Origin: a virus
Taxonomy: Duplodnaviria > Caudoviricetes
Direction: 5' to 3' (one strand)
Virus record (IMG/VR): IMGVR_UViG_3300049381_000006
Span: 1-42,460 of that record
DNA: 42,460 bases
Below are positions 19,605-39,313 of this stretch, piece by piece. The position numbers were made by a program, and so were the translations under genes. The notes beneath the pieces were generated by a model. That model was not told the DNA's origin, did not search any database, and was given only the letters and a program-made list of their open reading frames with translations. Each line of letters starts with the position of its first letter. Position 1 is the stretch's first letter.

Positions 19605-19892
19605 TCAGCTCTCCGGAGGCCAGTACGCCGCGGTGAACACGTACTCGGCCCCGGTCGGGACTTCGGCATCCCGTTTGGCCTTCGCCGCGTCGAGTGCATC
19701 CCGGTCCGGGTACAGGGCCACGGACGTTTTGGCCTGGGTGCCGTTGTGGCCGTCGAGCTGCACGGCGACGTTGACCAGGACCTCGGACCACACGCGGGTG
19801 ATGACCGCCGGCGCGGTGTCGGTCCCGTTGTTCGTGGTCGGGTGAACCGTGACGAGCACGGTCTGCCCGAGGCTCGGCGTCTGCTGGCCCAT
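19605..19892 (-). CDS. Small conserved phage protein
   Basis: PSLGQTV...APAVITRVWS..VNV.V pattern; coupled to the capsid stop. Confidence 0.75.
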   Translation of the reverse strand: MGQQTPSLGQTVLVTVHPTTNNGTDTAPAVITRVWSEVLVNVAVQLDGHNGTQAKTSVALYPDRDALDAAKAKRDAEVPTGAEYVFTAAYWPPES

Positions 19893-24537: not shown

Positions 24538-26582
24538 GTGCCCGCCGCCGGGTTCCAGGTGGCGGTCACGGTTCCGCGGCAGCGCCACCGGCCGAGGCAC
24601 AGGTGGTAGGGGCCGCCTGCGTATGCCTGCCATGCGTCTAGCCAGGTGTCGAACACGGTGCCGTGGATCTTCCGACAATTGACACAGGTAAATTTGTCGA
24701 GGACTTCCGTCGCCGTGTAGATCGTCTGTGGGACGTCGCGGACCGTCTCCAGCCGGCCAATGTTCTGCGCCCGGGTCAGCGCCGCACCGAGCTGCTCCCG
24801 CAGATGCGCAGGCGACAGCCCGTCGAGGTGCTTACGGACATCCGCCGTCACCTGCTCGGCGGGGACACCGGGCGCGTACACGCGTAGCGCTTCCCTGCCT
24901 GCGGACTGCGCCAGTCCGTCACCGAGAAGCCTCGCGACCACCTCAGCGACCGGCACCATGTCCGGCGGGGTGTCCGGGACGGGGATCGTCCGGCCCTGGG
25001 CGGCGGCCTCGCGGGCCATCTGCCTCGCGGCGGTCATGCCCATGTCCACCATCGCGGCGGTGAGCACCGCGACTGCGGCGGTTGTGGTGACGGTCAGCGC
25101 GGCGAGTGCGGCCACGGTGCCCGCCGCGATCGCTGCGGTGATCTGGGCGAGGAGTTCGGCCTGCTGTGCGGCGGTGATCCCCGCCCACACCAGGAGGAGC
25201 GCGGCGAGCGCGGCCTCCCAGTCGGCCTGCACCTGCTGGAGTTCCTCGTCGACTGGTGGGGGTTCGCCGGGGTCGGCGGGTGCGGCGTTGAGCCACGACA
25301 GGGCCGCGAGCGTCGACTGCGGCTTCGGGGCGGGGTTCTTCAGCCCTCCGCTCGGCGGTGCCGCCGGCGGGGTGGGTGGTTCGGGTTTCTTCCACACCAT
25401 GCCCTCGGGCAGGCCCAGCGGTTTGATCAGCGAATTGCCGTCAACACCGGCCTGCACGTAGGACACGAACGCGGACGCCTTCGACGTGCGCTCCCGGTCA
25501 CGTGCTGCGGCGTCCGGCGGCACCGGGTCGTCGTGGTCCCACTCCAAACCCTCACCGGTCGGCCCGTAGAGGGGCAGGAGCTGGAAGTTCAGCATGTCCT
25601 TGAGCCGGTCCAGGCGCGGCACCGTCACGTATTCCGCGAACATGACCTTGCCGCTCTCGGCGATGGCCCGGTTCGCGCCCTCCGTCAAACCGAGCATCGT
25701 CTTGGAGACACCGAACGCGACGAACAGTTTGTCGTCGCCGATCCGGGCCAACTCGACGAACTGCATGTCCCGCATGGAGTACTTGCGGTCGACCCACTTC
25801 ATCTTGTTTTCCAAGATGGCGACCCGGTGCGCGTTGTCGATGCCCTGGTGCGCTTCGGCCCACCTGTCTCGGAACTCGTTGAACTCGTCGTCGGACAGGC
25901 GCTCTTCGACCTCGATGATCCCGCCCGGCTCGGCACCGTTGGTGAAGAAGTTCCGGTTCCACTCCTCCGCGTACCTTTGCGCGTCCAAGGTGCGCATCGA
26001 CGCCTGCACGGGTCCGAGGCCGCGGTACGGGTTGTCGGGGTCGGGGCGGCGCATCGGGATCACGTCGTCGATCTCGAGCGGGATCTCCTCCCCGTCGGGG
26101 GAGGTGTAGATGTAGCCGATCAGGTATTCGGTCGGGGACACGACGGGACGCATCCGGTGCGGCGGCACAGGCCACAGCTCAAGCGGGATCTTGAACCGTT
26201 TGTTGCGGGCGACGACGATCCAGCCCTCACCGGTGAGGTCGAGGTGCTGCTGCTCGGTTTCGATGAAAAGTCTCTGGGTGAAGAACTTGTTGGGCCGGTT
26301 CCACAGGTCGAGGCACGCGTGTTCGGTGACTTCGACCCGGTCTTCTTTCAGCCCGGATTTCGCTTTGCGGTACAGGTGCCAGCCGACCGCAGCTGTTGCG
26401 GTCGAGGTTCGGTCGACGATGCCGAACAGGGTTCCGTTGCTGCCGTATGCCCGGAGTTGCGCCTGCTGGCCGCGTGGTGCCGCGTAGTGTCGGCCCCCGC
26501 CGACGGCGGCAGACCGCGATACGAGCGGGACAGGCGACGCGTTCCGGACAGCGGCGGCGAGTGTCGAGATCAAGTCCCTCAC
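24534..26582 (-). CDS. HK97-family portal protein fused to a MuF-like head morphogenesis domain
   Basis: RPN, YRGLGPV, FFTNGAEPGG, AFGV portal motifs; C-terminal A.N.GR...LD..TC..C...C.GR.RCRG MuF-like motif; GTG overlaps the upstream TGA. Confidence 0.92.
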   Translation of the reverse strand: MRDLISTLAAAVRNASPVPLVSRSAAVGGGRHYAAPRGQQAQLRAYGSNGTLFGIVDRTSTATAAVGWHLYRKAKSGLKEDRVEVTEHACLDLWNRPNKFFTQRLFIETEQQHLDLTGEGWIVVARNKRFKIPLELWPVPPHRMRPVVSPTEYLIGYIYTSPDGEEIPLEIDDVIPMRRPDPDNPYRGLGPVQASMRTLDAQRYAEEWNRNFFTNGAEPGGIIEVEERLSDDEFNEFRDRWAEAHQGIDNAHRVAILENKMKWVDRKYSMRDMQFVELARIGDDKLFVAFGVSKTMLGLTEGANRAIAESGKVMFAEYVTVPRLDRLKDMLNFQLLPLYGPTGEGLEWDHDDPVPPDAAARDRERTSKASAFVSYVQAGVDGNSLIKPLGLPEGMVWKKPEPPTPPAAPPSGGLKNPAPKPQSTLAALSWLNAAPADPGEPPPVDEELQQVQADWEAALAALLLVWAGITAAQQAELLAQITAAIAAGTVAALAALTVTTTAAVAVLTAAMVDMGMTAARQMAREAAAQGRTIPVPDTPPDMVPVAEVVARLLGDGLAQSAGREALRVYAPGVPAEQVTADVRKHLDGLSPAHLREQLGAALTRAQNIGRLETVRDVPQTIYTATEVLDKFTCVNCRKIHGTVFDTWLDAWQAYAGGPYHLCLGRWRCRGTVTATWNPAAGT

Positions 26583-26863
26583 CGGCGCCCGTCCGGCGGT
26601 GTGTCGGAGAGCAGGAAGTTGAGGAAGAAGCACGCGACGCCCGCCACGGCCATTCCCGCGCCGATGCCCCACTCCACCCACGCGCCTGCGGTCATCCCGG
26701 CGAGGCCTGCGGTTTGGAGGATGAACGCGCGGATGCCCTTGGACTGCCGCCGTAGCGCTATCGCACCCGACGCGACGGCCGAGACGGCCCGGCGGGCCGC
26801 ATGACTGAGAGCGGCGAACGACACTCGGGATGCCTGGGGTGCGGCGTGCGCGGCGGTGGTCAT
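26579..26863 (-). CDS. Small membrane protein upstream of portal
   Basis: Two C-terminal hydrophobic helices; coupled on both sides. Confidence 0.75.
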   Translation of the reverse strand: MTTAAHAAPQASRVSFAALSHAARRAVSAVASGAIALRRQSKGIRAFILQTAGLAGMTAGAWVEWGIGAGMAVAGVACFFLNFLLSDTPPDGRR

Positions 26864-27075
26864 GCGGTGTCCGGGCGGACGACGGTGACCGTGATGTCGT
26901 CTTCGAGGACCGCGAACTTGACGCCCTCAGGCATGACCGGGCAGAGGTACTTAGTCATCTCGTCGCGTTCGGCATCCGACAGGCATCGCCCGACCGAGAC
27001 GAGCAGTGTTTCCCCTGGGCGGACCACGGCCACGCGGACGCGGTCGAGCGCGGCGGCAAGGCCCGGGGAGGTCAT
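26860..27075 (-). CDS. Small protein resembling a stand-alone portal clip domain
   Basis: PGETLLVSVGRCLSDAERDEM...FAVLED vs portal PGGIIEVEERLSDDEFNEF...VAILEN. Confidence 0.6.
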   Translation of the reverse strand: MTSPGLAAALDRVRVAVVRPGETLLVSVGRCLSDAERDEMTKYLCPVMPEGVKFAVLEDDITVTVVRPDTA

Positions 27076-27186
27076 GCCCCAAGGGGAACCGATTCCACCG
27101 TGTTTGATCCACTAGGCGGCGGGGTCACGTGGAGCGCAGTGCGACGCGCGCAACGCAATGCGCGGTAAGTGATCCACTTTGCAAGG

Positions 27187-28662
27187 TTAGGTCGAACGGA
27201 TCTGCGGTCGCCCCTTCGCGAGCAGGCGGTGAAGCGCTTGGCTCATCGCATCAACTTGATCATCGTTCGCGCCGTTCGGAAAGCTCGCTGTTTCCTCTAC
27301 AAAGGCGCCGACCCACGGCGCTAGCGCCGCAGCCGGTAGGACGACGTTCCCGGCCTCGACGTACACGGCGATTGCCGACGCGCGGGCTTCCTTCGAGTCC
27401 TTCGGCGTGTACGCGATGACGCCCGGGACCTTCTTCCGGAGCTGCGAGATGATCGCCGGACCGTTGGCTTTGTCCTCGATCACCTTCGCGCGGGCCTGCG
27501 GCCACTTCGCCGCCAACTGCTCCAGCTTCGTACAGGTGACGGTGAAGTCCATCCGGTCGCGGACCTGGTCCAGCAGCCACGCGTTCACCCCGTTGGACGC
27601 CCACGCCTGCATGACGACGAAGTCGGAGTCCTTCGTGTCCTTGAACGCGGCATCGACGTGGATCTCGATGGTGACGGCGCCAGGGACGAACATCGTGCCG
27701 TCATCGCGTTGGACCGCTCGCGGGGTGTCGTAGTACTGCCACCAGTCCCGTTCGAAGATGCCGCCGCCGTCAGGGCTGGGCCGGCCTTGATAGAGAGCGT
27801 TCCACGCCCGCGGCCCTGCCGTCTTTTTGCGGTCCACCCACTCGTCGTGGGTTCGGCCGCGGGCGGACACCATGAACTCGCCGGGCTGGCGGCCGAGGAT
27901 GTCGAAGCCGAGGCAGCCGTCTTTGCCCGCGCATTTACACTCGGCGCCTTTTGCGGGATCGTGTTCGGCTTCGGCGGGGATGTTGATGAAGCGCCACTTG
28001 CCGGGGGCGTCTTCAACTAGCCGCCCGACGAGGTCTGCTTCGTGCCATCGGGTCATGATGACGACGACGATCGCACCGGGACCGAGGCGTGCGGAGCCGA
28101 CTTCTGTCCACCAGTCCCAGCAGCGTTTCCGGTACTTCTCCGAGTCGGCTTCCTGCCGGTCTTTGAGCGGATCATCTATCAGGAGCACGTCTACGGGACG
28201 TCCGGCTAGTCCGGAGCCGATACCGGCGGCGATCATGCCGCCGTCGAAGCCCTCCAGGCGCCACTCGCCGCCGGCACGGGTGTCCCGGCGTACGGCGATG
28301 CCCAGGTCCGGGTTTGATTCGATGTCGTTGCGGACGAGTTTGGCTGAGGTTAGCGCCAGGTCCTGCGCGTAGGAGACGACGGCGATGCGGAGGTGCGGGT
28401 TGCGTTGCAGCAGCCATGCTGGGAACGTTCGGGAGACGCGGGACGTTTTCCCTTCCTGTGGCGCGCAGGTGATGATCAGCCATGGCGAGACGCCGTTGAC
28501 AGCATCCACGAGCGCAGCGTCGATGATGTCCAACGCCGGGGTTTGGACTGTCCGCGCGTCCACGTACTTCGCCAACGCGCCGGGTGTCGCGAGCGTCAGC
28601 TTCTTCTTGTTCTGCTCCTCGCCGAGCCTGTCCCGGACCAGCCCGAGAACACGCGTGTTCAC
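27187..28662 (-). CDS. terL: Terminase large subunit
   Basis: Walker A APQEGKT, Walker B LLIDDP, TRWHEADL, LYQGRP, nuclease VDAAF, IEDKANG, FPNGANDDQVDA. Confidence 0.95.
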   Translation of the reverse strand: MNTRVLGLVRDRLGEEQNKKKLTLATPGALAKYVDARTVQTPALDIIDAALVDAVNGVSPWLIITCAPQEGKTSRVSRTFPAWLLQRNPHLRIAVVSYAQDLALTSAKLVRNDIESNPDLGIAVRRDTRAGGEWRLEGFDGGMIAAGIGSGLAGRPVDVLLIDDPLKDRQEADSEKYRKRCWDWWTEVGSARLGPGAIVVVIMTRWHEADLVGRLVEDAPGKWRFINIPAEAEHDPAKGAECKCAGKDGCLGFDILGRQPGEFMVSARGRTHDEWVDRKKTAGPRAWNALYQGRPSPDGGGIFERDWWQYYDTPRAVQRDDGTMFVPGAVTIEIHVDAAFKDTKDSDFVVMQAWASNGVNAWLLDQVRDRMDFTVTCTKLEQLAAKWPQARAKVIEDKANGPAIISQLRKKVPGVIAYTPKDSKEARASAIAVYVEAGNVVLPAAALAPWVGAFVEETASFPNGANDDQVDAMSQALHRLLAKGRPQIRST

Positions 28663-28877
28663 CGGGGCGCCTCGTGGTCGCAGTCGCCGTCGTCTCCGAA
28701 CGCGCATTGGTGCACGTCCTCCCACGGACATCGCGAGCAGCACCGGATGACGGTCTGACCGATGTGTACACCGCCACGGTCCTTGGGTCCGCTCCACAGC
28801 GGCGATATGTGGGTGCGCACGTCGTGCGGTGGGCAGTCGGACGCGACAACTTCATGGCCCGCGTCAGTGCTCTCCAT
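28659..28877 (-). CDS. Small Cys/His-rich hypothetical protein
   Basis: Coupled to terL; CPPH...CCSRC...C..C.H. Confidence 0.55.
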   Translation of the reverse strand: MESTDAGHEVVASDCPPHDVRTHISPLWSGPKDRGGVHIGQTVIRCCSRCPWEDVHQCAFGDDGDCDHEAPR

Positions 28878-28879
28878 GC

Positions 28880-29215
28880 CTAACCCCGCCTCGCAGACCA
28901 CGCCTGTGTCGGGCGCAGGTGAAGGGTCATCGTGTCGCCGTCCATTCCGGTGATCTCGTAGATGACCGGGTGGTCGTATACGTCGTTGCCGACGTGTAGC
29001 CCGCTACCCGCATATCCGAGGTGGAGGCGCCGCATGTCGGCGAGCGTCATCGTCGTCCGCTGGGGCGCGATGATGACCCTTCCTTGGTTTCCGTGGGGCG
29101 GTTTCGTCCAGGTGATGCCACCTATGGTCAGGGTCAGGTGTGCGGGCGGAGGTTCGGGTCGGGGCTCGAACACCAGCCGGTTCCACAGGTCGACGATGCG
29201 GGTCAGGGGGGTCAT
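28880..29215 (-). CDS. Hypothetical protein
   Basis: ATGA coupling with the upstream gene. Confidence 0.65.
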   Translation of the reverse strand: MTPLTRIVDLWNRLVFEPRPEPPPAHLTLTIGGITWTKPPHGNQGRVIIAPQRTTMTLADMRRLHLGYAGSGLHVGNDVYDHPVIYEITGMDGDTMTLHLRPTQAWSARRG

Positions 29216-29853
29216 GCGGATGGCCCTGCGGCGAGCTCGTCAAGGGCGGCCAGGATCAGCTTGTCGCCGAGGTCGGTGTCGCATTCTTCGCAGTAACCGT
29301 CCTCGTCGCGGACGTACCGGATGTGCCCGGCATCGCCGAGCGCGGCGTACACCTCGTACCGCCAACTGCTGCTGCCGAAGGGGCGTTTGCCGCTGAACTC
29401 GCCGTCTGTCCAGGCGCCGCGTGCGAGGGCGGCGAGGTATTCGCGGATGGTGGTGGCGTCGGCGTCGTTTTCGCCCATCGGGGTGGCGAGGATCTGCGCG
29501 GGGGTGGGCGCGGTCGAGGTAGATGCCGTCCTCTCAGAGATCACCACCGTGACGTTTCTCGGGTTGAGAGGGGTTTCCTCGCCGGTGAGGGGGTTGCGGT
29601 AAACGTAGCCAGTTCCATAGGCGTGCGCAGTGCGTATCAGTAGACGTCGATGCAGAACGGAGAGACCATCGAGTGCGGCGAGTTCGTTGATCCGGGCAAG
29701 CAGAGCAACCAGGACGGGTCGCTGGTGGCAGTAGCCGTGCGGGTCTTCCTTGTAGGACCACTCCTTGACGGCTTCCTCGGCTGCCGACCGGGCGGTGTCG
29801 TAGTTCAGGGCGTATCTCGTTTCCGCCTGCCCGGCCGTGAAGTGGGCACTCAT
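29212..29853 (-). CDS. Mosaic hypothetical protein with a portal-like internal segment
   Basis: ATGA coupling; C-terminal NDADATTIREYL...FSGKRPFG domain; internal YGTGYVY...PLNPRNVTV. Confidence 0.7.
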   Translation of the reverse strand: MSAHFTAGQAETRYALNYDTARSAAEEAVKEWSYKEDPHGYCHQRPVLVALLARINELAALDGLSVLHRRLLIRTAHAYGTGYVYRNPLTGEETPLNPRNVTVVISERTASTSTAPTPAQILATPMGENDADATTIREYLAALARGAWTDGEFSGKRPFGSSSWRYEVYAALGDAGHIRYVRDEDGYCEECDTDLGDKLILAALDELAAGPSA

Positions 29854-30215
29854 CGGGGCTCCAGTCTGGGCTTGTCCGCTGTTTCGTCGATGACGACTGG
29901 CACGCCGAACAGCGTCGGCGTGCGCCCGCCCCGGTAGATGCCGTTCCGCTGGTGGCGTTGGTGCAGCCACCGCGCGAACGCCCGATGCTCGCTGGACATC
30001 ACCGCCCGGTACTCGCCTGCGGGTCGTTCGGCGACTTGGGCGATGAACGCGCGCATCATCGTCTCGAACTCCTGCTCGGCACGCATCCGGGCGATGGCGT
30101 CGCGGGCTTCGTCGTCGGTCACGATGTGCCCGTCTCCGATCATCGCGTCGTCGAGGCGCTGCATGTAGCCGCGCGTCAGCTCCAGTTGGATCGTGGTGGC
30201 GAAGTCGTTGCTCAT
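29850..30215 (-). CDS. Hypothetical protein ending in an HK97 capsid A-domain-like segment
   Basis: AVMSS...NGIY...PTLFGVPVVIDET. Confidence 0.7.
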   Translation of the reverse strand: MSNDFATTIQLELTRGYMQRLDDAMIGDGHIVTDDEARDAIARMRAEQEFETMMRAFIAQVAERPAGEYRAVMSSEHRAFARWLHQRHQRNGIYRGGRTPTLFGVPVVIDETADKPRLEPR

Positions 30216-30850
30216 GCCGTGCCGTCCGGGTCGTCGCGTAGCCAGTTCTTGCCTTTGTCGGTCAGGAACGCGCGCCGTAATGCGACCCCGAAGTTGAGCA
30301 GCCCTCGATCAAGGTCGCGGTTGTAGGCGGCAAGCACGACTTTCGCGGGGAACCGCCGACATAGGTGCTCCCACGCGTAGGTGTCGTGTTCTTTGATGTG
30401 TTGGAGCAGCATGCGGGTGGTGACGTCGGATCGTTTCCACCTGCGGTGGAGGGGTTCGAGCCTCGGGACGGACACCGTTTCGTCGATCTTGATGGGGAGC
30501 GCGAAGATCTGGGCCAGGTTGCCAAACGCAGGCGGAGAGGACATCACCTCTCGGACCGCGTCAGCGAGACGGACCGCGTCCAGGTGCTTCGACGACATGA
30601 CGATCTTCATCGGCTCAGCCCTCGGCAGATCCCGGAACCTCGCCAACGTCTCCCGGATGGTCGCCGGTGGTGGCGGCGGCGGCGGCACGGCGAAGGCGTA
30701 CGCGCCCTCCTCCTGCCGCTCCGGCGGCCCCAAAATCCGCCTCATCGCGGCGGATATGGCGTCCGACGGTGTCCACAGGAACACGTCGACCATGCGCCGC
30801 TCCAGCCCGGCGATGCGCGTGAAGTCCTCGGACCGCAGCATGCCGCTCAC
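30212..30850 (-). CDS. Hypothetical protein: capsid A-domain-like segment plus C-terminal winged-helix-like domain
   Basis: IVMSSKH...QIFALPIKIDET..PRLEP; C-terminal RGLL.FG....FLTDKG. Confidence 0.7.
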   Translation of the reverse strand: MSGMLRSEDFTRIAGLERRMVDVFLWTPSDAISAAMRRILGPPERQEEGAYAFAVPPPPPPPATIRETLARFRDLPRAEPMKIVMSSKHLDAVRLADAVREVMSSPPAFGNLAQIFALPIKIDETVSVPRLEPLHRRWKRSDVTTRMLLQHIKEHDTYAWEHLCRRFPAKVVLAAYNRDLDRGLLNFGVALRRAFLTDKGKNWLRDDPDGTA

Positions 30851-31302
30851 CGGTCCCTCCACGTGACCTGGTGGTCGATCCCGTGATGCAGCACCGCTGG
30901 GCCGAGCCTGCATGTCATCTCCGGTGCGGCCGGGTAGGCGCGGAACCGCCGCAGGTCCACCGACAGGGTGACGTCGGTGCGCCGGGCGGTCGACGTCACC
31001 GGAGGGCGGCGGCGGACCAACCAACCGAGCCACCATGTGCCTGCGTAGGCTTCCTTGAAGTGCTGCCACCACGACGCGGGCGCGGTGACCGTGAACGTGC
31101 GCGTGGTCTCGAAGTGCTCCGGCGGCAGGTCTTCCGTCCACACCTGCGTGCTGAGTTCTAGGAGCATGTCGTCCGCGTAGAAGTCGATACCGGGCTCGGC
31201 GCTGAACCGTAGGCGTGCGGCCATCTCGCCGCTGATCCGCCTGGTCGCACCGAGTTTCCGCAGATCGATCAGTGCCTCGGTGAAGGTTCCCTCGGATCTC
31301 AC
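30847..31302 (-). CDS. Hypothetical phage protein
   Basis: PASWWQHFK...WL.RR.P pattern; coupled overlaps. Confidence 0.7.
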   Translation of the reverse strand: MRSEGTFTEALIDLRKLGATRRISGEMAARLRFSAEPGIDFYADDMLLELSTQVWTEDLPPEHFETTRTFTVTAPASWWQHFKEAYAGTWWLGWLVRRRPPVTSTARRTDVTLSVDLRRFRAYPAAPEMTCRLGPAVLHHGIDHQVTWRDR

Positions 31303-31922
31303 TGCGCTGCTCCCGCCGGGACGAGGGTCAGGTGCCCGCGCATGACCTCACGCGCCCGGACGGCTGCAGGCCCGGCGACGCCGGCTGAGGCGAGCCCGGC
31401 TTCCATGGCCCGGATGACCATGGCTGCGGTGGCTTCGTCGATCGCGGCCAACCGTTCGTCGATCTTCAGCTTCGCGATGTTCACCAACACCGTGTTGCAG
31501 CGGTCCATCGCCCGTTCCAGCAGTTGTACTTCGCCGCGGATCTGCTCGGTGTCGATGTTCGACGCGTACCGGAGCTTTTGTAGGTCGACCCTGTCTGCGA
31601 GCGCGTTCTTCCATGCGACGACTTCGCCGGCCAGCTGCTGCAACGCGCGCAGCGGGTCGCCGATCGGTGGCGCGTCGAGGATCTGCACTGCTTCGGTGAT
31701 TTCGCGGCGTGCCAGTTCGGCTCGGGCGGCTTTGCGTGCTTGTGGTGCTCTCCCGCCGTGGGAGTCGCATACCTTCAGCCCGTGTATGGGGTATTTCTTG
31801 CACGGCACGAGTTCGCCGTGTTCGAGGTCCCGGTGGCTGGTGCATTTGCGGGGGTCGTGGGGTTTGTCGCACCGGCCTTTGGGGCAGGGGATGGTGGCGG
31901 GTTTCGGTGCGGCGGCGGTCAA
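31299..31922 (-). CDS. Putative terminase small subunit (HGG-motif zinc finger plus helical domain)
   Basis: C...PC....G..VC..HGG.APQ motif, then an oligomerisation-type helical region; GGAGG RBS and TTG start overlapping the upstream TGA. Confidence 0.65.
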   Translation of the reverse strand: MTAAAPKPATIPCPKGRCDKPHDPRKCTSHRDLEHGELVPCKKYPIHGLKVCDSHGGRAPQARKAARAELARREITEAVQILDAPPIGDPLRALQQLAGEVVAWKNALADRVDLQKLRYASNIDTEQIRGEVQLLERAMDRCNTVLVNIAKLKIDERLAAIDEATAAMVIRAMEAGLASAGVAGPAAVRAREVMRGHLTLVPAGAAQ

Positions 31923-32107
31923 CGGTCGGCCCTCCAGGTTTTGACCGCGATGGGGCCGAGGTGCCAGTTCCAGCCTTCGGTCGCGTGGTTGTACTGGGCG
32001 CCGATGAGCCAGGTGCGACGGAATGCGCCGAGCACGAACTGGCGGGAGCCGATCCGGAATCGGCAGTCGGCGCGGAGCCAGCGGCGGAACCGGGCGAGGC
32101 CGGTCAC
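31919..32107 (-). CDS. Small Trp/Arg-rich hypothetical protein
   Basis: Coupled overlaps at both ends. Confidence 0.55.
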   Translation of the reverse strand: MTGLARFRRWLRADCRFRIGSRQFVLGAFRRTWLIGAQYNHATEGWNWHLGPIAVKTWRADR

Positions 32108-32358
32108 GGCGCTTCCGCCCGTGTGGGGTGGTCGTCCCCGTCGTCGGCCTGTGTCGTCTCCGTGCAGGCTGCCGTGAAGGCGCGCATCTTGGGCACCCAC
32201 TCATCGGCGAGACGGGTCAGTCGTTCAGGGACGCCGTCCAGCAGGACGCCGGACACGGTGACGTCGGCGTCATGGAACTCCAAACCTTCACCGGCGGCAC
32301 CGTATAGCGGCAGGAACTGGTGGTTTAGCAGGTCGAACCAGTCCGTGGCGTCGGGCAT
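32104..32358 (-). CDS. Small protein containing a near-copy of a portal segment
   Basis: DLLNHQFLPLYGAAGEGLE vs portal DMLNFQLLPLYGPTGEGLE (14/19 identical); start could alternatively be 32391. Confidence 0.7.
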   Translation of the reverse strand: MPDATDWFDLLNHQFLPLYGAAGEGLEFHDADVTVSGVLLDGVPERLTRLADEWVPKMRAFTAACTETTQADDGDDHPTRAEAP

Positions 32359-32366
32359 GTTATCGG

Positions 32367-32609
32367 TCACGACGACTGCCTTTTGTGCCATGTCCGCAGG
32401 TCGGTGAGCCCGATCCACAGCAGGACCTTGTTGAGGTTGTGCACGTCGGGCAGGCGCCCACGGCCGAGGTTCGTGTACACGTGCGTGGAGTGGAGGTCGG
32501 CTTGTTCGGCGGCTTTGCGCCAGGAGATGCGTAGGCCGCGTCGTTTCTGGTCGGCGGCGTGGTAGATCGCTTCGGGGTCGAGCGTTGGTGGGCGGGTTGT
32601 GGTTGCCAC
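32367..32609 (-). CDS. HTH (XRE-like) DNA-binding protein
   Basis: RR...ISWRKAAEQADL....TNLGRGRLPDV...LLWIG. Confidence 0.75.
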   Translation of the reverse strand: MATTTRPPTLDPEAIYHAADQKRRGLRISWRKAAEQADLHSTHVYTNLGRGRLPDVHNLNKVLLWIGLTDLRTWHKRQSS

Positions 32610-32716
32610 GGGTCCCCCCTGTTCGTGCGGGTCGGGCGATTTGATCAGTACACCATAATGTTCGCAGTGCGCGGTATGGAGCCCACGTCGATCAGCCGCG
32701 TGGGGATGGTGTCGGC

Positions 32717-33016
32717 TTACGGTGCGTGCAAGTGCGACACCATCGTTAGATGAACACCGATATCCGCCACGCCGCTCGCGAGCACCCGACCAGCGGCATC
32801 AACAACCTGCCACGCACCCGGCTTCAGCGGGTAGACGCGGTGAACGGGGATGCCGAACAGCGTCGGGTTGAGCAGCCGTTTTCCCTCCGCGATCGGGTCG
32901 AGCACGTCGGGGCTGCCCTCGAACCGCATGCCCCACGGCGGGTCGTACTGGTGTTGGGCTGCGATCCGGCTGACCGGTTCCAGGATCAGCAGCCCGATCT
33001 CGGCGCGCTCGCTCAT
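32717..33016 (-). CDS. Small protein resembling the HK97 capsid A-domain
   Basis: RFEGSPDVL...PTLFGIPVHRVYPLKPGAWQVVD. Confidence 0.65.
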   Translation of the reverse strand: MSERAEIGLLILEPVSRIAAQHQYDPPWGMRFEGSPDVLDPIAEGKRLLNPTLFGIPVHRVYPLKPGAWQVVDAAGRVLASGVADIGVHLTMVSHLHAP

Positions 33017-33264
33017 GCCGCCCACTCGTCTTCCGCGCGCAGTTCGTGACGCTTGGTCAGCTCGGCGAGCGCGTGCAGCGCCTCGTCGACGAGGCGCCCC
33101 AACGCCGCGACCGCTTCTTCGTGCGTGACGCCGGTGTAGTCATCGCCAGCGACCTTCCACCGGTCGCATTGGTGGGGGAGGCTGACCTGCCATAGGTCGG
33201 CGGGGTTGTCGAACTCGTCGTCGGTTTGCTTGACCCGGAATCCGAACGGCTCGCGGTCGCTCAT
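33013..33264 (-). CDS. Hypothetical protein
   Basis: GGAGG RBS, ATGA coupling. Confidence 0.7.
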   Translation of the reverse strand: MSDREPFGFRVKQTDDEFDNPADLWQVSLPHQCDRWKVAGDDYTGVTHEEAVAALGRLVDEALHALAELTKRHELRAEDEWAA

Positions 33265-33674
33265 GCCACACCTCCGGCCTTGCTGCGTTCGCGCACCGCT
33301 TGTGCCCGCTGCCGATCAGCGGGCGCGAGCGGCGTCGGCATTCCTATGGCCTCGTGGATGCGTTCGTAGACGCCGTCAAGCGTCAGGTCGACCGAGACGT
33401 GCTCCCACGACAGCGGTCCGATGAGCCGGGTAAGGCCGATGATGCGGCCGACTATGCCGTCACACTGGATTGACCAGGTTCCGTCGGCCGAGTGTCTCCG
33501 CGCTTCTGCCAGGTCCGTCCACGCCAGTTCGAGCAGCCATCGCAGGGCCGCGTCGGGTGTGGCGTATTCCTCGGTCTGGCCGGCTTGGGTGACGGCTTCG
33601 TCGACGGATTCGAGGGTGGTCCGCTTGCGCCAGCGGTGCGCCAGTTCGGACGCGCTCAGCTCCTGCTCGCTCAT
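33261..33674 (-). CDS. Hypothetical protein
   Basis: ATGA coupling; GC3 bias. Confidence 0.7.
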   Translation of the reverse strand: MSEQELSASELAHRWRKRTTLESVDEAVTQAGQTEEYATPDAALRWLLELAWTDLAEARRHSADGTWSIQCDGIVGRIIGLTRLIGPLSWEHVSVDLTLDGVYERIHEAIGMPTPLAPADRQRAQAVRERSKAGGVA

Positions 33675-33946
33675 GCCGCCCAGTCCTCTCGCCAGTCCGG
33701 GTGAGACCGGTACACGGACGCGAGCAGCCGCTCTACCTGATGGAGCAGGCCCTTCATCGCCAGCGCATCGCCGAGCAGTCCGGGATTGTCGATCGCCCCC
33801 GCGCAGTGCTCCAGGATCGCGTGCCTGGCATCGATCTCGGCCAAGGCACGTTCGGCATCGCCTGTTGCACCGGGCCGCATCGCCTGGTGCGTGTCTTCGG
33901 TGTGCCGGTCCGCGAGGAACGCGACCAGGCCGTTGGTGTCCGTCAT
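33671..33946 (-). CDS. DUF6221-like protein (short form)
   Basis: LVAFLADR.ED...RALAEIDAR..IL...LLASVYRSHPDWREDW. Confidence 0.75.
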   Translation of the reverse strand: MTDTNGLVAFLADRHTEDTHQAMRPGATGDAERALAEIDARHAILEHCAGAIDNPGLLGDALAMKGLLHQVERLLASVYRSHPDWREDWAA

Positions 33947-34269
33947 GCCGCAGCCTGCCCGCTCGCGAGGATCGCCGCCGCGAACCGGGGGCAGCTCATC
34001 AGGTACTTCCGGTCGCAGCCACAACCCTCACTGTCGTGGATCTTCGTCGCCTTCTCAAGCAGGTCGGCCCGCTCGATCACCGACTCGCCTACCGGCGCCC
34101 GGTCGAGGCGGTCAAGCACCCCGGCTGCCGCGAGCGCGTCAGCGGCCGTACCGATGACGATCGCGGTGTGGCGCTGTTCAGGGGTGCGGCCGGGCACGGC
34201 TTCATCCGCGTCGGTCGCCGTGGTGAACTTCCCGTGCTCGTCGCGCACCCGTTCGTCCCTGTTCGTCAT
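33943..34269 (-). CDS. Hypothetical protein with N-terminal RDEHGKF motif
   Basis: ATGA coupling; C-terminal H...CGC....C cluster. Confidence 0.65.
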   Translation of the reverse strand: MTNRDERVRDEHGKFTTATDADEAVPGRTPEQRHTAIVIGTAADALAAAGVLDRLDRAPVGESVIERADLLEKATKIHDSEGCGCDRKYLMSCPRFAAAILASGQAAA

Positions 34270-34655
34270 GTCGCGTCGCTTCCGTCGTTGATGAGCCCGT
34301 CGTGCCTCGCAACCGCCGCATAGCGGCCGGCCTCCGGCATGGCGTTGAGCAGCGCCGCCAGCTCGTCACAGATCTGCCGCGTGCTCCGTCCGAGCCCTTC
34401 GGTGACCGCCGGCGCTTCGGGTGGCAGGCCCGCGATCGGCCGACCCTCGAAGTAGGGCGCGTCCAAGTCGGCGTCCGACCATCCGTTGTAGTACGGCTCA
34501 ATCACGCCGTTGAGGTTGTAGTCGTCGATCACGGCGTGCAGCGGCCCGCCCGTCGGGTGGATGGCGTACAACTCACCGATCAGCTCGACTGCCCGTTTGA
34601 CCTGCTCGTTCCAGGTGGTCGGCGAGCCCGCGTTCTCCCAGCACTCAACGCACAT
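34266..34655 (-). CDS. Hypothetical phage protein
   Basis: MCVECW...GGPLHAVIDDYNL motif. Confidence 0.7.
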   Translation of the reverse strand: MCVECWENAGSPTTWNEQVKRAVELIGELYAIHPTGGPLHAVIDDYNLNGVIEPYYNGWSDADLDAPYFEGRPIAGLPPEAPAVTEGLGRSTRQICDELAALLNAMPEAGRYAAVARHDGLINDGSDAT

Positions 34656-35091
34656 CGGTCGCCCATTCCTCTTGCCGGCCCGGATGCGCCCGGTAGACGC
34701 CCGTGATGTCCCGGACGTCCGCGCAGGGCCACGCCTGGCCGTGGCAGCGGTTGCAGACCAGCGTGCCCCAGTGTGGCGCCTCGCAGGTGCGACACCCGCC
34801 CATCGCGTGCGGGCTATGCCGGGCGATGATCGCCCGCTTCGCCCCGACCTCCGCCAGCACCCGAGCCGGGTCGTGGCGTGCGATGTGCTCGACCAAGCCC
34901 GGTGCGAACTCTCGGCCCTCGTGCGGGTAGGCGAGGCACCACCCGTTGCGAGTACCGAGCGCGTGCGCGTCTCGAACGATCCATTCGCCGGTCCACGGCG
35001 GGCTGTTGTCATCCACGGCCCGCGCGGTCGCCTCGTCCTCGGCCAGCCGCACGGTGAGAAATTCGACGATCTCCATATTCTCGCCGCTCAC
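34645..35091 (-). CDS. DUF6221-like protein
   Basis: IVEFL..RLAEDE..A...HIARHDPARVLAEV.AKR.II...WPC...VY..HPG.QEEW. Confidence 0.8.
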   Translation of the reverse strand: MSGENMEIVEFLTVRLAEDEATARAVDDNSPPWTGEWIVRDAHALGTRNGWCLAYPHEGREFAPGLVEHIARHDPARVLAEVGAKRAIIARHSPHAMGGCRTCEAPHWGTLVCNRCHGQAWPCADVRDITGVYRAHPGRQEEWATDVR

Positions 35092-35471
35092 AGTTCGATT
35101 CCGTATCCGTCGGACAGCAAGAGCAGTGTCGGGCACGGGTACGCCGACTCAGCGTAGAGGTGGCTCCCCTCCAGGCACGTCTGGCAGATCGGGTCGCCCG
35201 CGACCGCGACATACGGGGCGTGCAGGTCGAGGATCTTCCGGTGCGCGGCGACCATCCGCAGCGTCCGGACGGGGCAGGTTGCCACGATGTGCGCGGCCGT
35301 CGCCCGGGTCTGGTTCGAGCTCAGCGCGAACGCGTCGGCGACCGTCACACCGTCGACCGCGATAACCTCGTCTTGCTCCGGGTTCGCCGACCACGGTCCG
35401 GGGCTCGCGGCGAGCGCTATCCGCTCCGCCTCGTCGATCGCCTCACGCAGTCTCGTGATCAAGTCGCTCAT
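35088..35471 (-). CDS. DUF6221-like protein
   Basis: RLREAIDEAERIA.AA.PGPW...AAHIV...P.R.LR.VAAHRKIL.LH...C.TC...YPCPTL. Confidence 0.75.
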   Translation of the reverse strand: MSDLITRLREAIDEAERIALAASPGPWSANPEQDEVIAVDGVTVADAFALSSNQTRATAAHIVATCPVRTLRMVAAHRKILDLHAPYVAVAGDPICQTCLEGSHLYAESAYPCPTLLLLSDGYGIEL

Positions 35472-35959
35472 TCGCTGGTCACTCCATAGGCCTCGATCAT
35501 CAGTTGGAACACGTCGGCCATCAGCCACGCCCTCGCCTCAGCCTCAGCGTTCTCGTACTGTTTACCGACCACCTGCCCGCACATGTCCACGAGCTTCCGG
35601 TCGACCGCGCACCGCCGCAGGACCTTCGCCGGGTCATGCCTGACGATGTGGACCGCCGCAGCAGCCTTCACCTCCTCGGCGCTGCCGCCAGGGAACGACG
35701 GCAGCCCTCGGACATCCCAGCTCAACTGGTACCGCTCCTCGCTGCGCAGGGACACCCCGACGGAACCGCACACCGGGCACTCCACGAACTCGTCGACGAC
35801 CGGATCGGGCTCGATCACGGTGTCGCACTCGCAACACTCCCAGCGCCAGTGCTCACCCGTCGGAGTGCCCGGTTCGCTCGTCTGCGATGCGGCAACCGCC
35901 CACGCCGCAGTCTCGTCGATCGCCGCCCGAAGCCGGTCGATGCGCCTCATCTCGCTCAC
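35468..35959 (-). CDS. DUF6221-like protein with inserted zinc ribbon
   Basis: RLRAAIDE...CCEC...CPVCGS...HIVRHDPAKVLRRC..DRK. Confidence 0.75.
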   Translation of the reverse strand: MSEMRRIDRLRAAIDETAAWAVAASQTSEPGTPTGEHWRWECCECDTVIEPDPVVDEFVECPVCGSVGVSLRSEERYQLSWDVRGLPSFPGGSAEEVKAAAAVHIVRHDPAKVLRRCAVDRKLVDMCGQVVGKQYENAEAEARAWLMADVFQLMIEAYGVTSE

Positions 35960-36213
35960 CACGGGTGCACCTCCACGGTCATCTTCGCCTTGTCGAACGC
36001 CGAACCCAACACGGGCGGTTGCAGGTCGCGCCACGCCTTCGCCAGCAACGGCCGGACGACCGCCCGCATGCTCGCGCCGTCGATCCGGTCCTCCCGGGTG
36101 AGCCGACACCTGTTGATCATGATCTCCGGGTGCGTCTCGAAGTCGAGCAGAACCAACCCGAACGGGTCATCCTTGAGCCGCTCCCGAAGCCGCTCAAGCT
36201 CCACCCCGTTCAT
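35956..36213 (-). CDS. Hypothetical protein
   Basis: ATGA/GTGA coupling on both sides. Confidence 0.6.
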   Translation of the reverse strand: MNGVELERLRERLKDDPFGLVLLDFETHPEIMINRCRLTREDRIDGASMRAVVRPLLAKAWRDLQPPVLGSAFDKAKMTVEVHPW

Positions 36214-36608
36214 ACCGGGTTGACCCATCCCGTGAGCAGCGGAACCGCACCCGGGCTGCCGTGGACCGGGCAACCCGCCGAACTGCCGGGCAGGTAAACC
36301 CTCTTGCCGGCCGCGAGCTCGGCCATCGACGTCACCTCCAACATTGGGCAGGTGCAGCCGTCGCTTTCCCCAGGTCTGACGGGTCCCGTGGGCTGTGACC
36401 CGCCTGACGGGTTGACGCACACGCTGCCGTCGGCATGGGTCATCGTCGCCAGGTTGATCGCCGCGTCGCTGGCGCACAGGGCTCGCATGCACCGCACGCA
36501 GCTGAGTGTCGTCCACCGGCCGCAGCCGTCGCCCTGGCACGGCTTCTTCAGGCTGGGTGCGGATCTGACCGGTCGTGTGTGCCAGGCCTCGTCGCGTGGG
36601 TGGCTCAT
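36210..36608 (-). CDS. Cys-rich hypothetical protein
   Basis: Multiple Cys clusters (C...C, CVRC, CTCP, CPVH); AAGGAG RBS. Confidence 0.65.
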   Translation of the reverse strand: MSHPRDEAWHTRPVRSAPSLKKPCQGDGCGRWTTLSCVRCMRALCASDAAINLATMTHADGSVCVNPSGGSQPTGPVRPGESDGCTCPMLEVTSMAELAAGKRVYLPGSSAGCPVHGSPGAVPLLTGWVNPV

Positions 36609-37048
36609 GTCTGGGTCTCCTTGCCGGTGACGGGGTCGATGACGTCGATCAGGTATGCGGTGTTGCCCTGGTACACCCGCTCCCACGCGGCCTTGAACGC
36701 GGCGAACTCCTCGGCGGTGAGCGGTTCGGTGGTGGAGATGAGCCCGGTGGGGTTGGGCTGCCAACTCATGCCGCAGGCGCAGTCGTGCGAGGTGTGTTTG
36801 GTGGCCCGGTGGGTGCACCGGTGCTCGTGCTTGCCGGGTGCGAAGAAGTCCACCGGCGGGAAGGTCTCCTCGCACGGGCCGGGGTCGTGGTGGGTGAGCC
36901 ACCTGTGGACGGGAATCCAGATCGCGACGGCAGCGAGAGCGAGGATCGCGGCGTGGAGCCCGTTGGGTTCGCCGAGGATTTCGGCAGGAGTGTAGAGCGC
37001 GGCGTAGATCCCAAGCGTGCCAATGAACCAGCCCAGCATGGACTTCAC
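36605..37048 (-). CDS. Two-TM protein with a Cys/His finger and a C-terminal portal-clip-like segment
   Basis: Two N-terminal TMs; H.C.H...H..H.C.C; PTGLISTTEPLTAEEFAAFKAAWERVYQG; GGAGG RBS. Confidence 0.7.
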   Translation of the reverse strand: MKSMLGWFIGTLGIYAALYTPAEILGEPNGLHAAILALAAVAIWIPVHRWLTHHDPGPCEETFPPVDFFAPGKHEHRCTHRATKHTSHDCACGMSWQPNPTGLISTTEPLTAEEFAAFKAAWERVYQGNTAYLIDVIDPVTGKETQT

Positions 37049-37437
37049 GGCTTGCCGCCTCCCTTCGCTTTGACGTGGGCTTGCATGGCGAGCAGGAGTT
37101 CGAACGGGTTGTCGGAGCGGAGTTGCCCGGCGAAGTCGGCTCGGGCGGTGGCGATCGCCCGGGTCATCTCGGTCTGGACCCGGTCGAGGGCTGCGACCGT
37201 GTAGAGCCAGGTGGTGATCGCCGCACCTCGGATGAGGGTTTCGTCGGAGGGTCGGAGTTCGGCGGGTGCGCCTTTGGGGATCTCGCCGCCGAGGAGGATC
37301 CGGGCGACCGCGAGTTGTGCGGCGTCGGCGGCGATGGCGGCGAGCTGGTCGAGGTGGACGGTGTCGTCGGTGAGGTCGGGCCACGCTTCGGTAAGCGCGG
37401 CTTTGACGGCGTCGACGACGCGGGAGTCTGCGCTCAT
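37045..37437 (-). CDS. Hypothetical protein
   Basis: Coupled overlaps; helical. Confidence 0.65.
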   Translation of the reverse strand: MSADSRVVDAVKAALTEAWPDLTDDTVHLDQLAAIAADAAQLAVARILLGGEIPKGAPAELRPSDETLIRGAAITTWLYTVAALDRVQTEMTRAIATARADFAGQLRSDNPFELLLAMQAHVKAKGGGKP

Positions 37438-37754
37438 CGCGGGCTGCCGTTGATGAGTGCCTCGATGAGCCGGTCGACGCGTCCGCGCTCATGCAGGTAG
37501 TCCTCGCGGATGCCGCGTACAGCGTTGGTGCCGCCGTAGTGGTCGGCAAGGGCGTCGAGGAGCGCGCGCGCCATGCCGTCGGTGAGACGGAGGCACGGCT
37601 CGGTGTCGACACCCTCAGGTGCGGGGGTGATGGTGAGCTGCATGGGCTGGACGGTGCCGAATACGCCGGCTCCGTTTTCCATGCCGAGTCGGATGGCGAC
37701 ACCTGCGCGGACGAAGTCGGGTTCGATGCTGGCACGGTACGGCGTGGCGGTCAT
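37434..37754 (-). CDS. Hypothetical protein
   Basis: GGAG RBS, ATGA coupling. Confidence 0.7.
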   Translation of the reverse strand: MTATPYRASIEPDFVRAGVAIRLGMENGAGVFGTVQPMQLTITPAPEGVDTEPCLRLTDGMARALLDALADHYGGTNAVRGIREDYLHERGRVDRLIEALINGSPR

Positions 37755-38473
37755 TTGGCTGCTCCGGGGTGTTGTGGGCGGCGGGGTCGGATCGGCCACG
37801 ACCCGTCTTCGTCGTCGAGCGGGTCGCCGATCTTGCGTCGGTACGCGGCGAAGCTGGCGGTTTGCTCGGCCGCCCACCGGACCTGCCGTGCGTGGAGTTC
37901 ATGCGGGTCGATCTGCAGTTCCGGGTACCGTGCTGCGATCTTGTACGCGACCCGTAGCGCGCCCAACGCGTCGGAGGTGGATTCGTGGGCGTTGTCGATC
38001 CGCGCCCCGTAGCGGGCGCACAGGTCGGTGAGCTTCCGGCCGCCGCGCCGGTACTGGTCGACGACCTTGTCGAGGACCCGGACGTCGATGACCGGCCGCA
38101 GTTCCATGCCACTGCTGAACGGCATCCAGTGCGACAGCGGCGGGTGCCCGTGCCGGGTCAGTTCCCGGTCGAGCATGGTGATGTCGAACGGCGCGTTCAT
38201 CATGACGATGGGTGTGCCGGCGGCCACGATGTCGGCGAGGATCTGCGTGATCTCGGCGACGGCGGTGGCGCCTTCGGGGATGTGGACGCCGGGGTTGACG
38301 AGCCATTCGCGGGTGTCGACTGCGCGTGCCGTGCCTTCAGCAGCCGGGGTGATGGTGATGATGCTCGCGGTGACGATGCGGTCTTGTTCGGTGTCGACCC
38401 CGGTGGTTTCGAGGTCGAGGCTGGCGAGGGGTCCTTTGTGCCAGGCGATGCGGGGTGGGGCGATTGTCGTCAT
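37751..38473 (-). CDS. DnaQ-like DEDDh 3'-5' exonuclease (apparent internal deletion)
   Basis: ExoI LDLETTG, ExoII NAPFD, ExoIII AHESTSD. Confidence 0.9.
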   Translation of the reverse strand: MTTIAPPRIAWHKGPLASLDLETTGVDTEQDRIVTASIITITPAAEGTARAVDTREWLVNPGVHIPEGATAVAEITQILADIVAAGTPIVMMNAPFDITMLDRELTRHGHPPLSHWMPFSSGMELRPVIDVRVLDKVVDQYRRGGRKLTDLCARYGARIDNAHESTSDALGALRVAYKIAARYPELQIDPHELHARQVRWAAEQTASFAAYRRKIGDPLDDEDGSWPIRPRRPQHPGAAK

Positions 38474-38643
38474 CGTGCGCTCGCTTCCTCGGGTTCGGTG
38501 CCGGGATTCGGCTTGGACGGTGACCGTCGCGTGGTCGGTGTGGTGTCGGTGTGCTTGGGCAGGCTGGCGGCAGCGAGGTAAAGCGGCACCCCGTACCAGG
38601 CGACGATGAACGCGGTGAGCCCCGCCGTCTCCCAGCCGCTCAC
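38470..38643 (-). CDS. Small single-TM protein (57 aa; not in the ORF track)
   Basis: MSGWETAGLTAFIVAWYGVPLYLAAASL...; GTGA and ATGA overlaps with neighbours. Confidence 0.6.
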   Translation of the reverse strand: MSGWETAGLTAFIVAWYGVPLYLAAASLPKHTDTTPTTRRSPSKPNPGTEPEEASAR

Positions 38644-38942
38644 TTCGGCTCTCCGGTGATGTCCTCGGCAGCGCGTCCGGCCTGCTGTTTGACCCAGGTC
38701 CCGGCCCAGTGCATCCCGGACCGGAACAGTCCTTGGTCCTGCCGTGATGCGAGGTCGAGGACTTCGCCGGCAACGACCAGCCGCTCATCCCGCGCGATGA
38801 TCGGCCGCATGGCGTCGTACGCGGCGGCGGCCATGTCCGGCCAGTCGGCTTCGTAGTTGCTGGCGGCAGCGGCCTCGCCGATCGCGCGCCCGCCCGCCTC
38901 GATGGCCTCGGACCTGACCGCCTCGTTCTCGGTGCCGCTCAT
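38640..38942 (-). CDS. Hypothetical protein
   Basis: GGAGG RBS, ATGA coupling. Confidence 0.65.
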   Translation of the reverse strand: MSGTENEAVRSEAIEAGGRAIGEAAAASNYEADWPDMAAAAYDAMRPIIARDERLVVAGEVLDLASRQDQGLFRSGMHWAGTWVKQQAGRAAEDITGEPK

Positions 38943-39313
38943 CGGTTCCTCCAAACGTGGACCTCGTCGATGACCGTCAGGTGCGGTTCGGCACCCCGCA
39001 TCTCGATGCTGCTCACATGCGGCGTGACGTCGACTCCGCCGATCCGGACCTGCGTCGGCGTGAACCGGGCGCGGGTGTTGTCGAGCACGAAGGCCCACGC
39101 CTCGTCGGTGGTGATCCAGGGCGACCCTGCGGTTCGGGTCTGCCCGTCGTCGGGTGTCCACCGCATGGCGTCGCCGCTGACGGCGTAGTCCTCGATCGCG
39201 CCGTCGATGAGCGCGAGGATGTCGGCCTCAGCCACAACGGCCCCGCCGCCTACCGCCATTTCGTCCCCAGAGCCCCCACGGCCCTCGTGCGTGGAATTCG
39301 GCGTCTGGCTCAC
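38939..39313 (-). CDS. Mosaic hypothetical protein
   Basis: GGAGG RBS; SGDAMRWTP motif; ends RGAEPHLTVIDEVHVW. Confidence 0.65.
   Translation of the reverse strand: MSQTPNSTHEGRGGSGDEMAVGGGAVVAEADILALIDGAIEDYAVSGDAMRWTPDDGQTRTAGSPWITTDEAWAFVLDNTRARFTPTQVRIGGVDVTPHVSSIEMRGAEPHLTVIDEVHVWRNR

Follow-up and report, generated by a model that had tools for sequence, protein, structure and literature searches.

The 42,460-nucleotide virus record IMGVR_UViG_3300049381_000006 (Duplodnaviria; Caudoviricetes), taken here in its complete length as the window to which all positions refer (81% complete; GC ~68%), carries small accessory genes in which short excerpts of head and packaging proteins, i.e. 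portal, major capsid protein and large terminase, are joined to unrelated carrier segments. Judged from their sequences, these genes appear to represent a real, recurrent class of mosaic mini-genes that apparently has not been described previously. The original prediction of excerpts grafted onto unrelated carriers holds, in that the pieces come from head and packaging proteins, their carriers are exchangeable and they recur in frame in other phages. Eight open reading frames (ORFs), named here by their first coordinate, are at issue:

26860..27075, minus strand: member of the 'VVRPGDTL' family, a 71-residue beta-alpha-beta protein that stands alone; its alignment with the portal clip covers residues 19-59 (26899-27021)
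29212..29853, minus strand: 213-residue fusion of a portal-wing-like piece (residues 79-102, 29548-29619) and a carrier (114-210, phrog_15618)
29850..30215, minus strand: 121-residue protein; C-terminal half (~49-121) with a predicted HK97 capsid A-domain fold behind an unrelated helical hairpin
30212..30850, minus strand: 212-residue protein with an A-domain-like piece (76-133, 30452-30625), then a predicted winged-helix-like part (140-211)
32104..32370, minus strand: 88-residue orphan ORF with a late portal piece of ~26-33 residues (32260-32358)
32717..33016, minus strand: 99-residue ORF with the second half of the capsid A-domain motif (50-70, 32807-32869)
36605..37048, minus strand: 147-residue protein with a hydrophobic N-terminus, a Cys/His-rich middle and a portal clip piece (100-138, 36635-36751)
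38939..39313, minus strand: 124-residue ORF with a 'DAMRW' N-terminal module (39146-39223) and a terminase Walker-B-like tail (105-122, 38948-39001)

We take the names 'clip' and 'wing' for portal segments from general knowledge and the original prediction.

Eight small genes with head-protein excerpts

All eight ORFs lie on the minus strand, are intact and stop where listed, and their base use is of the coding type (GC at third codon positions 0.79-0.89 versus 0.44-0.53 at second positions). In seven of them the start codon overlaps the preceding stop codon as (A/G)TGA; the predicted translational coupling thus holds for all but 26860, which is coupled at its 3' end only. Their supposed location upstream of the structural operon is correct only in part, as 26860 lies between terL and the portal gene, and 29212, 29850 and 30212 lie between the probable terS and terL.

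In Smith-Waterman comparisons of 37 small ORFs with the phage's own portal, capsid and terminase (300 shuffles each), two ORFs, 32104 and 36605, exceeded all 300 shuffles. Against their claimed donors among these proteins 29212 reached a p of 0.027, and 26860, 29850, 30212, 32717 and 38939 stayed at p >0.2; support for these six comes only via families or foreign donors. None of the eight whole proteins matched a portal, capsid or terminase model of Pfam or PHROGs at E 0.1. The donor families are PF04860 (portal), PF05065 (capsid) and phrog_9 (terminase), and the small ORFs, holding pieces of just 18-70 residues of them, fall far under the family cut-offs: with a PF04860 cut-off of 39.1 bits, the best small-ORF segment scored 13.1 bits over 32 of 321 positions. 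None amounts to a full portal (wing, stem, clip and crown), and the 29850 family lacks a complete capsid fold (N-arm, E-loop, P- and A-domain). We regard the set as partly confirmed, with strong support for 32104, 36605 and the 26860 family, good support for 29850, and indirect or moderate support for 30212, 32717, 29212 and 38939. For the most part, the pieces have not been copied from genes that this phage itself carries.

Portal-like pieces

The late portal piece of 32104 aligns to residues 362-387 of the phage's own portal (Smith-Waterman score 80, z 9.6), and 59 nucleotides of the gene are 83% identical to positions 25541-25598 (E 4e-8 at the DNA level); a portal window hidden Markov model (HMM) matches it at E 2e-7. 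This piece is as predicted, apart from the coupled start, which is 32370 (88 residues) and not 32358. The clip piece of 36605 aligns to residues 252-291 of the own portal (score 62, z 6.4). The sole Pfam match of the segment is Phage_portal (E 0.056), and a three-sequence clip profile of the 36605 group matches portals at E 4e-8. A portal profile from 43 relatives served to detect clip pieces in small ORFs of other phages. Similar pieces sit on other carriers in L086, L087, L094 and L183 (L and G numbers are labels of the compared loci and records; loci from G110, G040 and G142 were left out of all alignments), and a hydrophobic N-terminus precedes the clip piece in 36605, L087 and L183. The proposed clip piece of 36605 matches the own portal beyond chance and recurs on other carriers. 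Searches of 50,697 annotated phages with 32104 and 36605 (tblastn) gave no match at E 1.

The third portal-like protein, 26860, is one of a family with at least 269 unnamed relatives of 36-140 residues (~70 typically) at E<=0.01. A 120-member alignment of the family matches the portal clip at E 3.4e-5 (hhalign, probability 72, 38 columns), and its profile matches a more diverse portal set at E 1e-4, with 17 unrelated or reversed targets at E>=0.058. Its clip resemblance is therefore a family-level one, as it is not significant pairwise and none of the 120 members has a Pfam portal match. The genes lie directly between terL and the portal gene in seven of ten viral records, just before the portal gene in one and elsewhere in two, and they adjoin three unrelated terminase families. 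Four of 13 records chosen by their portal have a member and nine do not; members also occur in 3 of 301 bacterial genomes, in one of them not as a small ORF. A complex prediction for this family with the phage's own TerL scored 0.00 and carries no weight for or against an interaction. A six-frame search of 21 records with the Pfam portal model yielded one extra clip in a small ORF, in G004 (E 3e-4).

Capsid A-domain-like pieces

29850 and 13 relatives of 33-79% identity make up a family of 14 members with lengths of 96-173 residues. Pfam Phage_capsid matches three of the 14 (best E 1.1e-4) and phrog_212 two (E 0.049), and the family profile aligns to diverse capsids over residues 71-113 at E 0.0087, with non-capsid targets at E>=0.2. 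AlphaFold (AF2) run with the alignment gave a model with a predicted local distance difference test score (pLDDT) of 88.4. HK97-fold shells make up 13 of the 15 VIA rows over residues 49-121 (best Z 5.7, root-mean-square deviation (rmsd) 3.4 over 71 residues), and one row is the stand-alone A-domain PF0899. From the single sequence a poor model (pLDDT 53) resulted, with which a search of viral folds returned nothing at E<=0.001. In the Atlas, feature matches stayed below 0.9, and the rows by structure comprised capsids or small viral proteins, with template modeling (TM) scores of 0.43-0.49, below the bar. A tblastn search of the 50,697 annotated phages gave chance rows only at E 10, and the family has no member in the 301 bacterial genomes and no full match in 15 further records (one weak, stop-containing match). 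Profile and Foldseek comparisons had been proposed as a check on the excerpts: the profiles matched for the 36605 group and the 26860 family, but Foldseek found no PDB match for the good 29850 model at E<=0.001. Searched against PDB sequences, the 29850 and 26860 family profiles gave no capsid and no portal.

The piece in 30212 is paralogous to that of 29850 (blastp E 1.8e-4; 29850-family HMM E 1e-7); this HMM made eight matches at E<0.5 among the 1,354 genes of the census given below, and none in both controls. Direct comparison of 30212 gave no capsid match (profile E 0.19) and no capsid row in the Atlas; Atlas rows at TM ~0.3 offer a lead only for a winged-helix-like residues 140-211 segment. 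For 32717, the single viral relative returned is a full-length 386-residue capsid protein with nine identical residues at the A-domain motif, and the profile match to diverse capsids has E 0.054. Of the three claimed A-domain pieces, that of 29850 draws its support from the family's Pfam match and from a predicted fold that alone does not decide; 30212 and 32717 have putative, indirect links to the capsid, and none of the three is significant pairwise. Since these A-domain pieces differ from the motif of the own capsid (~20117-20179), the donor would be another lineage or the divergence old. The sole PF05065 match in the window is the true capsid gene, and a six-frame Pfam capsid search of the 21 records found true genes only.

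A 107-residue ORF (L095:2594-2917) gave an unexplained match, over part of its length, to another capsid window (E 1e-4). A-domain-like sequence was noted by eye or by weak HMM matches at L092:2241-2738, L099:2546-3079, L265:4217-4642 and L183:2087-2374, with no library match.

Wing and Walker B pieces and the exchange of carriers

In 29212, a profile of the wing pair matches diverse portals with an E of 1.1e-3, against E>=0.19 for 16 other targets; the proposed wing match is thus moderate at the profile level, but pairwise it fails against the own portal. The carrier of this fusion is a separate gene of ~104 residues in G001 and G015, and in G001 the wing piece stands on another carrier. Carrier swapping is accordingly shown by gene layout for 29212; for 38939 it is suggested.

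Compared with windows of 26 phrog_9-type terminases, the tail of 38939 reaches 15.7 bits, more than any of 1,480 shuffles; no other of the 37 ORFs falls under p 0.05 in this test. Its sole PHROG match is phrog_9 (E 0.3). The predicted Walker B resemblance thus points to a foreign terminase family, but not to the own TerL (phrog_38 type), to which there is no match. The Walker-B-like tail of 18 residues is all that 38939 has of a terminase; a nuclease and an ATPase domain with both Walker motifs are lacking. Window tests of this kind do give false positives, as the helix-turn-helix (HTH) protein 41194 reached p 0.0014 against a portal window. By eye, 38939 seemed to have a tail-tube-like hairpin as well, for which the window test gave no support.

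The DAMRW module occurs in 16 other distinct ORFs with >40 residues behind it, their C-terminal parts being very different. More generally, many small viral ORFs (L267-L299) have at their N-terminus a module that ends in DAMRW[TS]P, and a second group has the motif near the C-terminal end. By eye several of the C-terminal parts behind the N-terminal module resemble terminase, capsid or portal motifs; statistically these resemblances are weak. One DAMRW protein, L270, carries an A-domain-like piece (p 0.003, weak), and terminase-like motifs in the others reach p 0.008-0.03 (4-5 of 16) with no library match.

Census and selection

To place these genes, 1,354 small genes of 91 GC-rich loci were searched with 40-column windows of nine families, using reversed and shuffled sequences as controls. 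Portal-like matches numbered eight at E<0.05, seven of them in one clip window of ~36 and the eighth being 32104, with none in the controls; the seven clip matches amount to about three lineages, and the windows were not matched for information content. Windows of terminase, protease, connector, exonuclease and amidase recovered true, truncated or edge-cut, or frameshifted genes (by inspection), plus chance-level matches. Ratios of nonsynonymous to synonymous substitution (dN/dS) were estimated by the pairwise Nei-Gojobori method, which is GC-biased and noisy here and covers one pair each. They were 0.40 for 29850, 0.37 for its A-domain and 0.26 for the wing (50 codons), with 0.22 for portal and 0.18 for capsid as controls. 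Some of the pieces are, on these alignments, old conserved families, and one (32104) may be recent debris. The patchy presence of the 26860 and 29850 families in the records counted above fits what is expected of accessory conflict genes.

Possible roles of the excerpt genes

We tentatively place first, as a plausible reading that is short of probable, that the excerpt genes act as competitive mimics of head proteins and so blunt host sensors. The pieces would stem from structural genes, both of this phage lineage and of others, through non-homologous recombination, and would be made with the late genes, to judge from their place in the same co-directional gene chain. Their partial surface would bind an Avs/STAND-type or short-motif sensor without driving its activation, and the gene would be retained on that account. 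This reading is ranked first because the donors are the proteins read by Avs sensors, three sensor families bind the A-domain and competition of this kind is proven for DSAD1. The clustering of portal-like matches on the clip, the dN/dS of 29850, its A-domain and the wing, the patchy presence, the carrier exchange and the foreign donors also count in its favor. In the available text of one study, Avs/STAND sensors recognize portal, terminase and capsid, and Avs7, Avs8 and Avs10 bind the capsomer interface of the capsid A-domain (10.64898/2026.01.04.697583). A broader form of the idea, in our view rather doubtful, is an actinophage modular 'epitope library', in which conserved portal, capsid and terminase surfaces, own and foreign, would be carried on tags that can be swapped, for instance the DAMRW module or a membrane anchor, and directed against pattern-recognition immunity.

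Several observations weigh against sensor mimicry. The available text of the same study has Avs sensors wrapping extended folds, for which excerpts of 20-40 residues may not suffice (10.64898/2026.01.04.697583). Likewise, a second source, as far as its text is available, gives the Avs2-terminase interface as 2,833 Å2, and reports that vs.8, a stand-alone terminase-ATPase-like protein, is toxic with Avs2, i.e. a trigger (PMC13601566). A portal surface bound by Avs4 or Avs11 was not found in the available text on these sensors. The 26860 family, fixed beside terL and portal, fits a decoy least and may tune packaging instead; the eight genes need not form one system, and their jobs may differ. 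The clip region of L087 versus L183, the closest pair of clip carriers, has a dN/dS of 0.86 over 37 codons, and 26860 pairs have 0.52 and 0.82. For 29850, RNase E (Z 5.1) and FliH (Z 4.7) tie with the HK97-fold scores, and the fold alone therefore does not decide its identity. The LFGxP motif is not enriched (14 versus 12 in reversed sequences, shuffle mean 8.4), and 32104 has no true relative, its two metagenome matches being spurious frames. The eight ORFs have no anti-defence match in Pfam or PHROGs, libraries which cover only part of the known families. An inhibition of RelA/SpoT, as by the T7 portal, was considered for the clip pieces and rejected, since the clip is described as dispensable there and an intact ring as needed (PMC13483052, available text).

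That the resemblances are chance alignments of short motifs is very improbable. Six of the eight are not significant pairwise, no whole protein matches a structural family, and the p-value of protein 41194 illustrates how such tests can mislead; however, the DNA match of 32104, the profiles of the 36605 group and the 26860 family (E 3e-5) and the Pfam capsid match of the 29850 family are far from chance level, and the matches fall where the original prediction had placed them. Chance is refuted for 32104, 36605 and the 26860 family, and is possible for 29212, 32717 and 38939 taken singly. Recycling of parts, or recombination debris, is a close rival of mimicry, unlikely though credible: non-homologous recombination would keep moving fragments of structural genes into the accessory region, folding pieces such as the clip beta-alpha-beta unit and the A-domain would serve as scaffolds for unrelated jobs, and some pieces, such as 32104, would be recent and neutral. 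The orphan status of 32104 and its nucleotide identity to the portal gene favor this, as does the dN/dS of the clip pair in L087 and L183. The concentration on the clip may also partly reflect detection bias, because only the best-conserved motifs are detectable, and the pieces are often too short for a whole binding surface. Nonetheless, only one of ~35 other portal windows matched, comparable non-structural pieces were lacking, large diverged families (269 and 14 members) stay in frame, and the ratios for wing and A-domain are low.

The clip binds terminase and adaptor, and the A-domain forms capsomers. Pieces from such subunit contacts could cap the head assembly of co-infecting phages in a dominant-negative manner, or help to regulate packaging in the phage that encodes them. 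Such a role in assembly interference or tuning is the other close rival; we hold it to be unlikely for the set as a whole and best suited to the 26860 family. The position of that family beside three unrelated terminase families and the foreign origin of several pieces agree with it, and the available descriptions of the capsid homologue Ccm of SaPIbov5 (PMC8569155) and of the assembly block by Tai (PMC11364771) provide precedents. Conversely, a phage that makes such pieces late, within the same gene chain, would put its own assembly at risk, and no immunity partner is seen. Moreover, since it is missing from nine of 13 records with related portals, the 26860 family is not a core packaging factor.

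Relation to known systems

The available descriptions of known systems allow a comparison with the excerpt genes. DSAD1, the anti-DSR2 protein of phi3T/SPbeta, competes with a structural protein for the trigger site of the sensor that reads it and so blocks that sensor (PMC11087589), the mode proposed here; unlike the excerpt genes its function is proven, it is not described as a tube-gene excerpt, and the comparison is by description only. vs.8 of T4-like phages is likewise an accessory gene, its homology being to a single packaging-protein domain, the terminase ATPase (PMC13601566), but it is a whole domain with Walker A and B that activates Avs2, whereas the terminase piece of 38939 has ~18 residues and an unrelated carrier. 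Family 4 'A-domain encapsulins' (PF08967, PF0899/2PK8) are stand-alone HK97 A-domains of ~100 residues (PMC8346489), and 2PK8 aligns to residues 49-121 of 29850 (Z 4.4, rmsd 4.7, 69 residues). They are, however, described as cellular, from thermophilic archaea and Bacteroidetes and in enzyme operons (PMC8346489), whereas 29850 is phage-borne, fused and part of a packaging gene chain; at E<=1 the 14 members of the 29850 family match 18 Pfam families, of which none is PF08967. Ccm of SaPIbov5 also is a mobile-element protein that acts on phage assembly and derives from a capsid gene, but it is a satellite's capsid homologue built into shells and not a set of short excerpts carried by a complete phage (PMC8569155). 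Tai, too, is a mobile-element protein blocking phage assembly, but it targets tails and is not an excerpt panel (PMC11364771). The literature searched, most subscription papers lying outside it, held no description of phage accessory genes built from head-protein excerpts, and a November 2026 review of phage counter-defence (PMC13728456) has, in its available text, no excerpt genes under decoy, portal, mimic or capsid.

Genome layout and source

The phage record has a full set of its own head and tail genes. On the minus strand the order is a DnaC-like gene, an HTH gene, a methylase, ~30 small genes, the probable terS, terL, portal, a Clp-type protease, capsid and tail genes, among them:

24534..26582, minus strand: portal gene, HK97 type, with a long C-terminal extension (PF04860 E 6e-57; phrog_2662/phrog_12)
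~25809-25928 and 25521-25598, minus strand: clip and late segment of the portal gene
27187..28662, minus strand: large terminase, phrog_38 type (E 1e-101)
19892..21466, minus strand: major capsid protein ORF (PF05065 E 5e-51; phrog_10); true start probably near 21349
31299..31922, minus strand: probable small terminase, from relatives placed upstream of terL in L081 and L084

The last of these has no family name, its match being phrog_3678 of unknown function. A small membrane protein (26579-26863; phrog_502, E 2e-4) directly precedes the portal gene here and in many relatives. The C-terminal extension of the portal (24534-25400, ~280 residues) resembles a fused minor head protein, which we take to be MuF-like. 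At 21346-24537, a long acidic N-terminal part and an RNA-ligase-like (phrog_2659) domain precede a Clp-type head protease, all fused into one protein of ~1,060 residues. Four DUF6221 (PF19730) paralogs lie amid the accessory genes (33671-35962), several also being present in related phages. On the opposite strand, beyond the lysis genes, 50-1375 encodes a polynucleotide kinase/phosphatase with an extra N-terminal domain, possibly an RNA-repair counter-defence gene. In G000-G018, portals that are closely related occur together with large terminases of at least three different families, which indicates frequent terminase exchange. A promoter and terminator scan of the window gave nothing above shuffles.

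One sequencing run contains this phage, a soil metagenome that is probably its source; no RNA run is listed among those containing it. The host would be an actinomycete, since portal relatives are present in Catellatospora and Nonomuraea genomes.

Implications

Avs/STAND sensors recognize proteins that a phage cannot do without, i.e. portal, terminase and capsid. If the excerpt genes are decoys, they would constitute a general, as yet unnamed form of counter-defence and provide reagents of 70-120 residues for mapping sensor epitopes; if the 'epitope library' is true, the excerpts would map the surfaces read by bacterial sensors. If instead they interfere with assembly, they would be a new phage-versus-phage weapon. 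Two unnamed families are in any case defined, that of 26860 with 269 members and that of 29850 with 14, and even if the excerpts are neutral, they would account for where some of the 'hypothetical' small ORFs so abundant in actinophage genomes come from.

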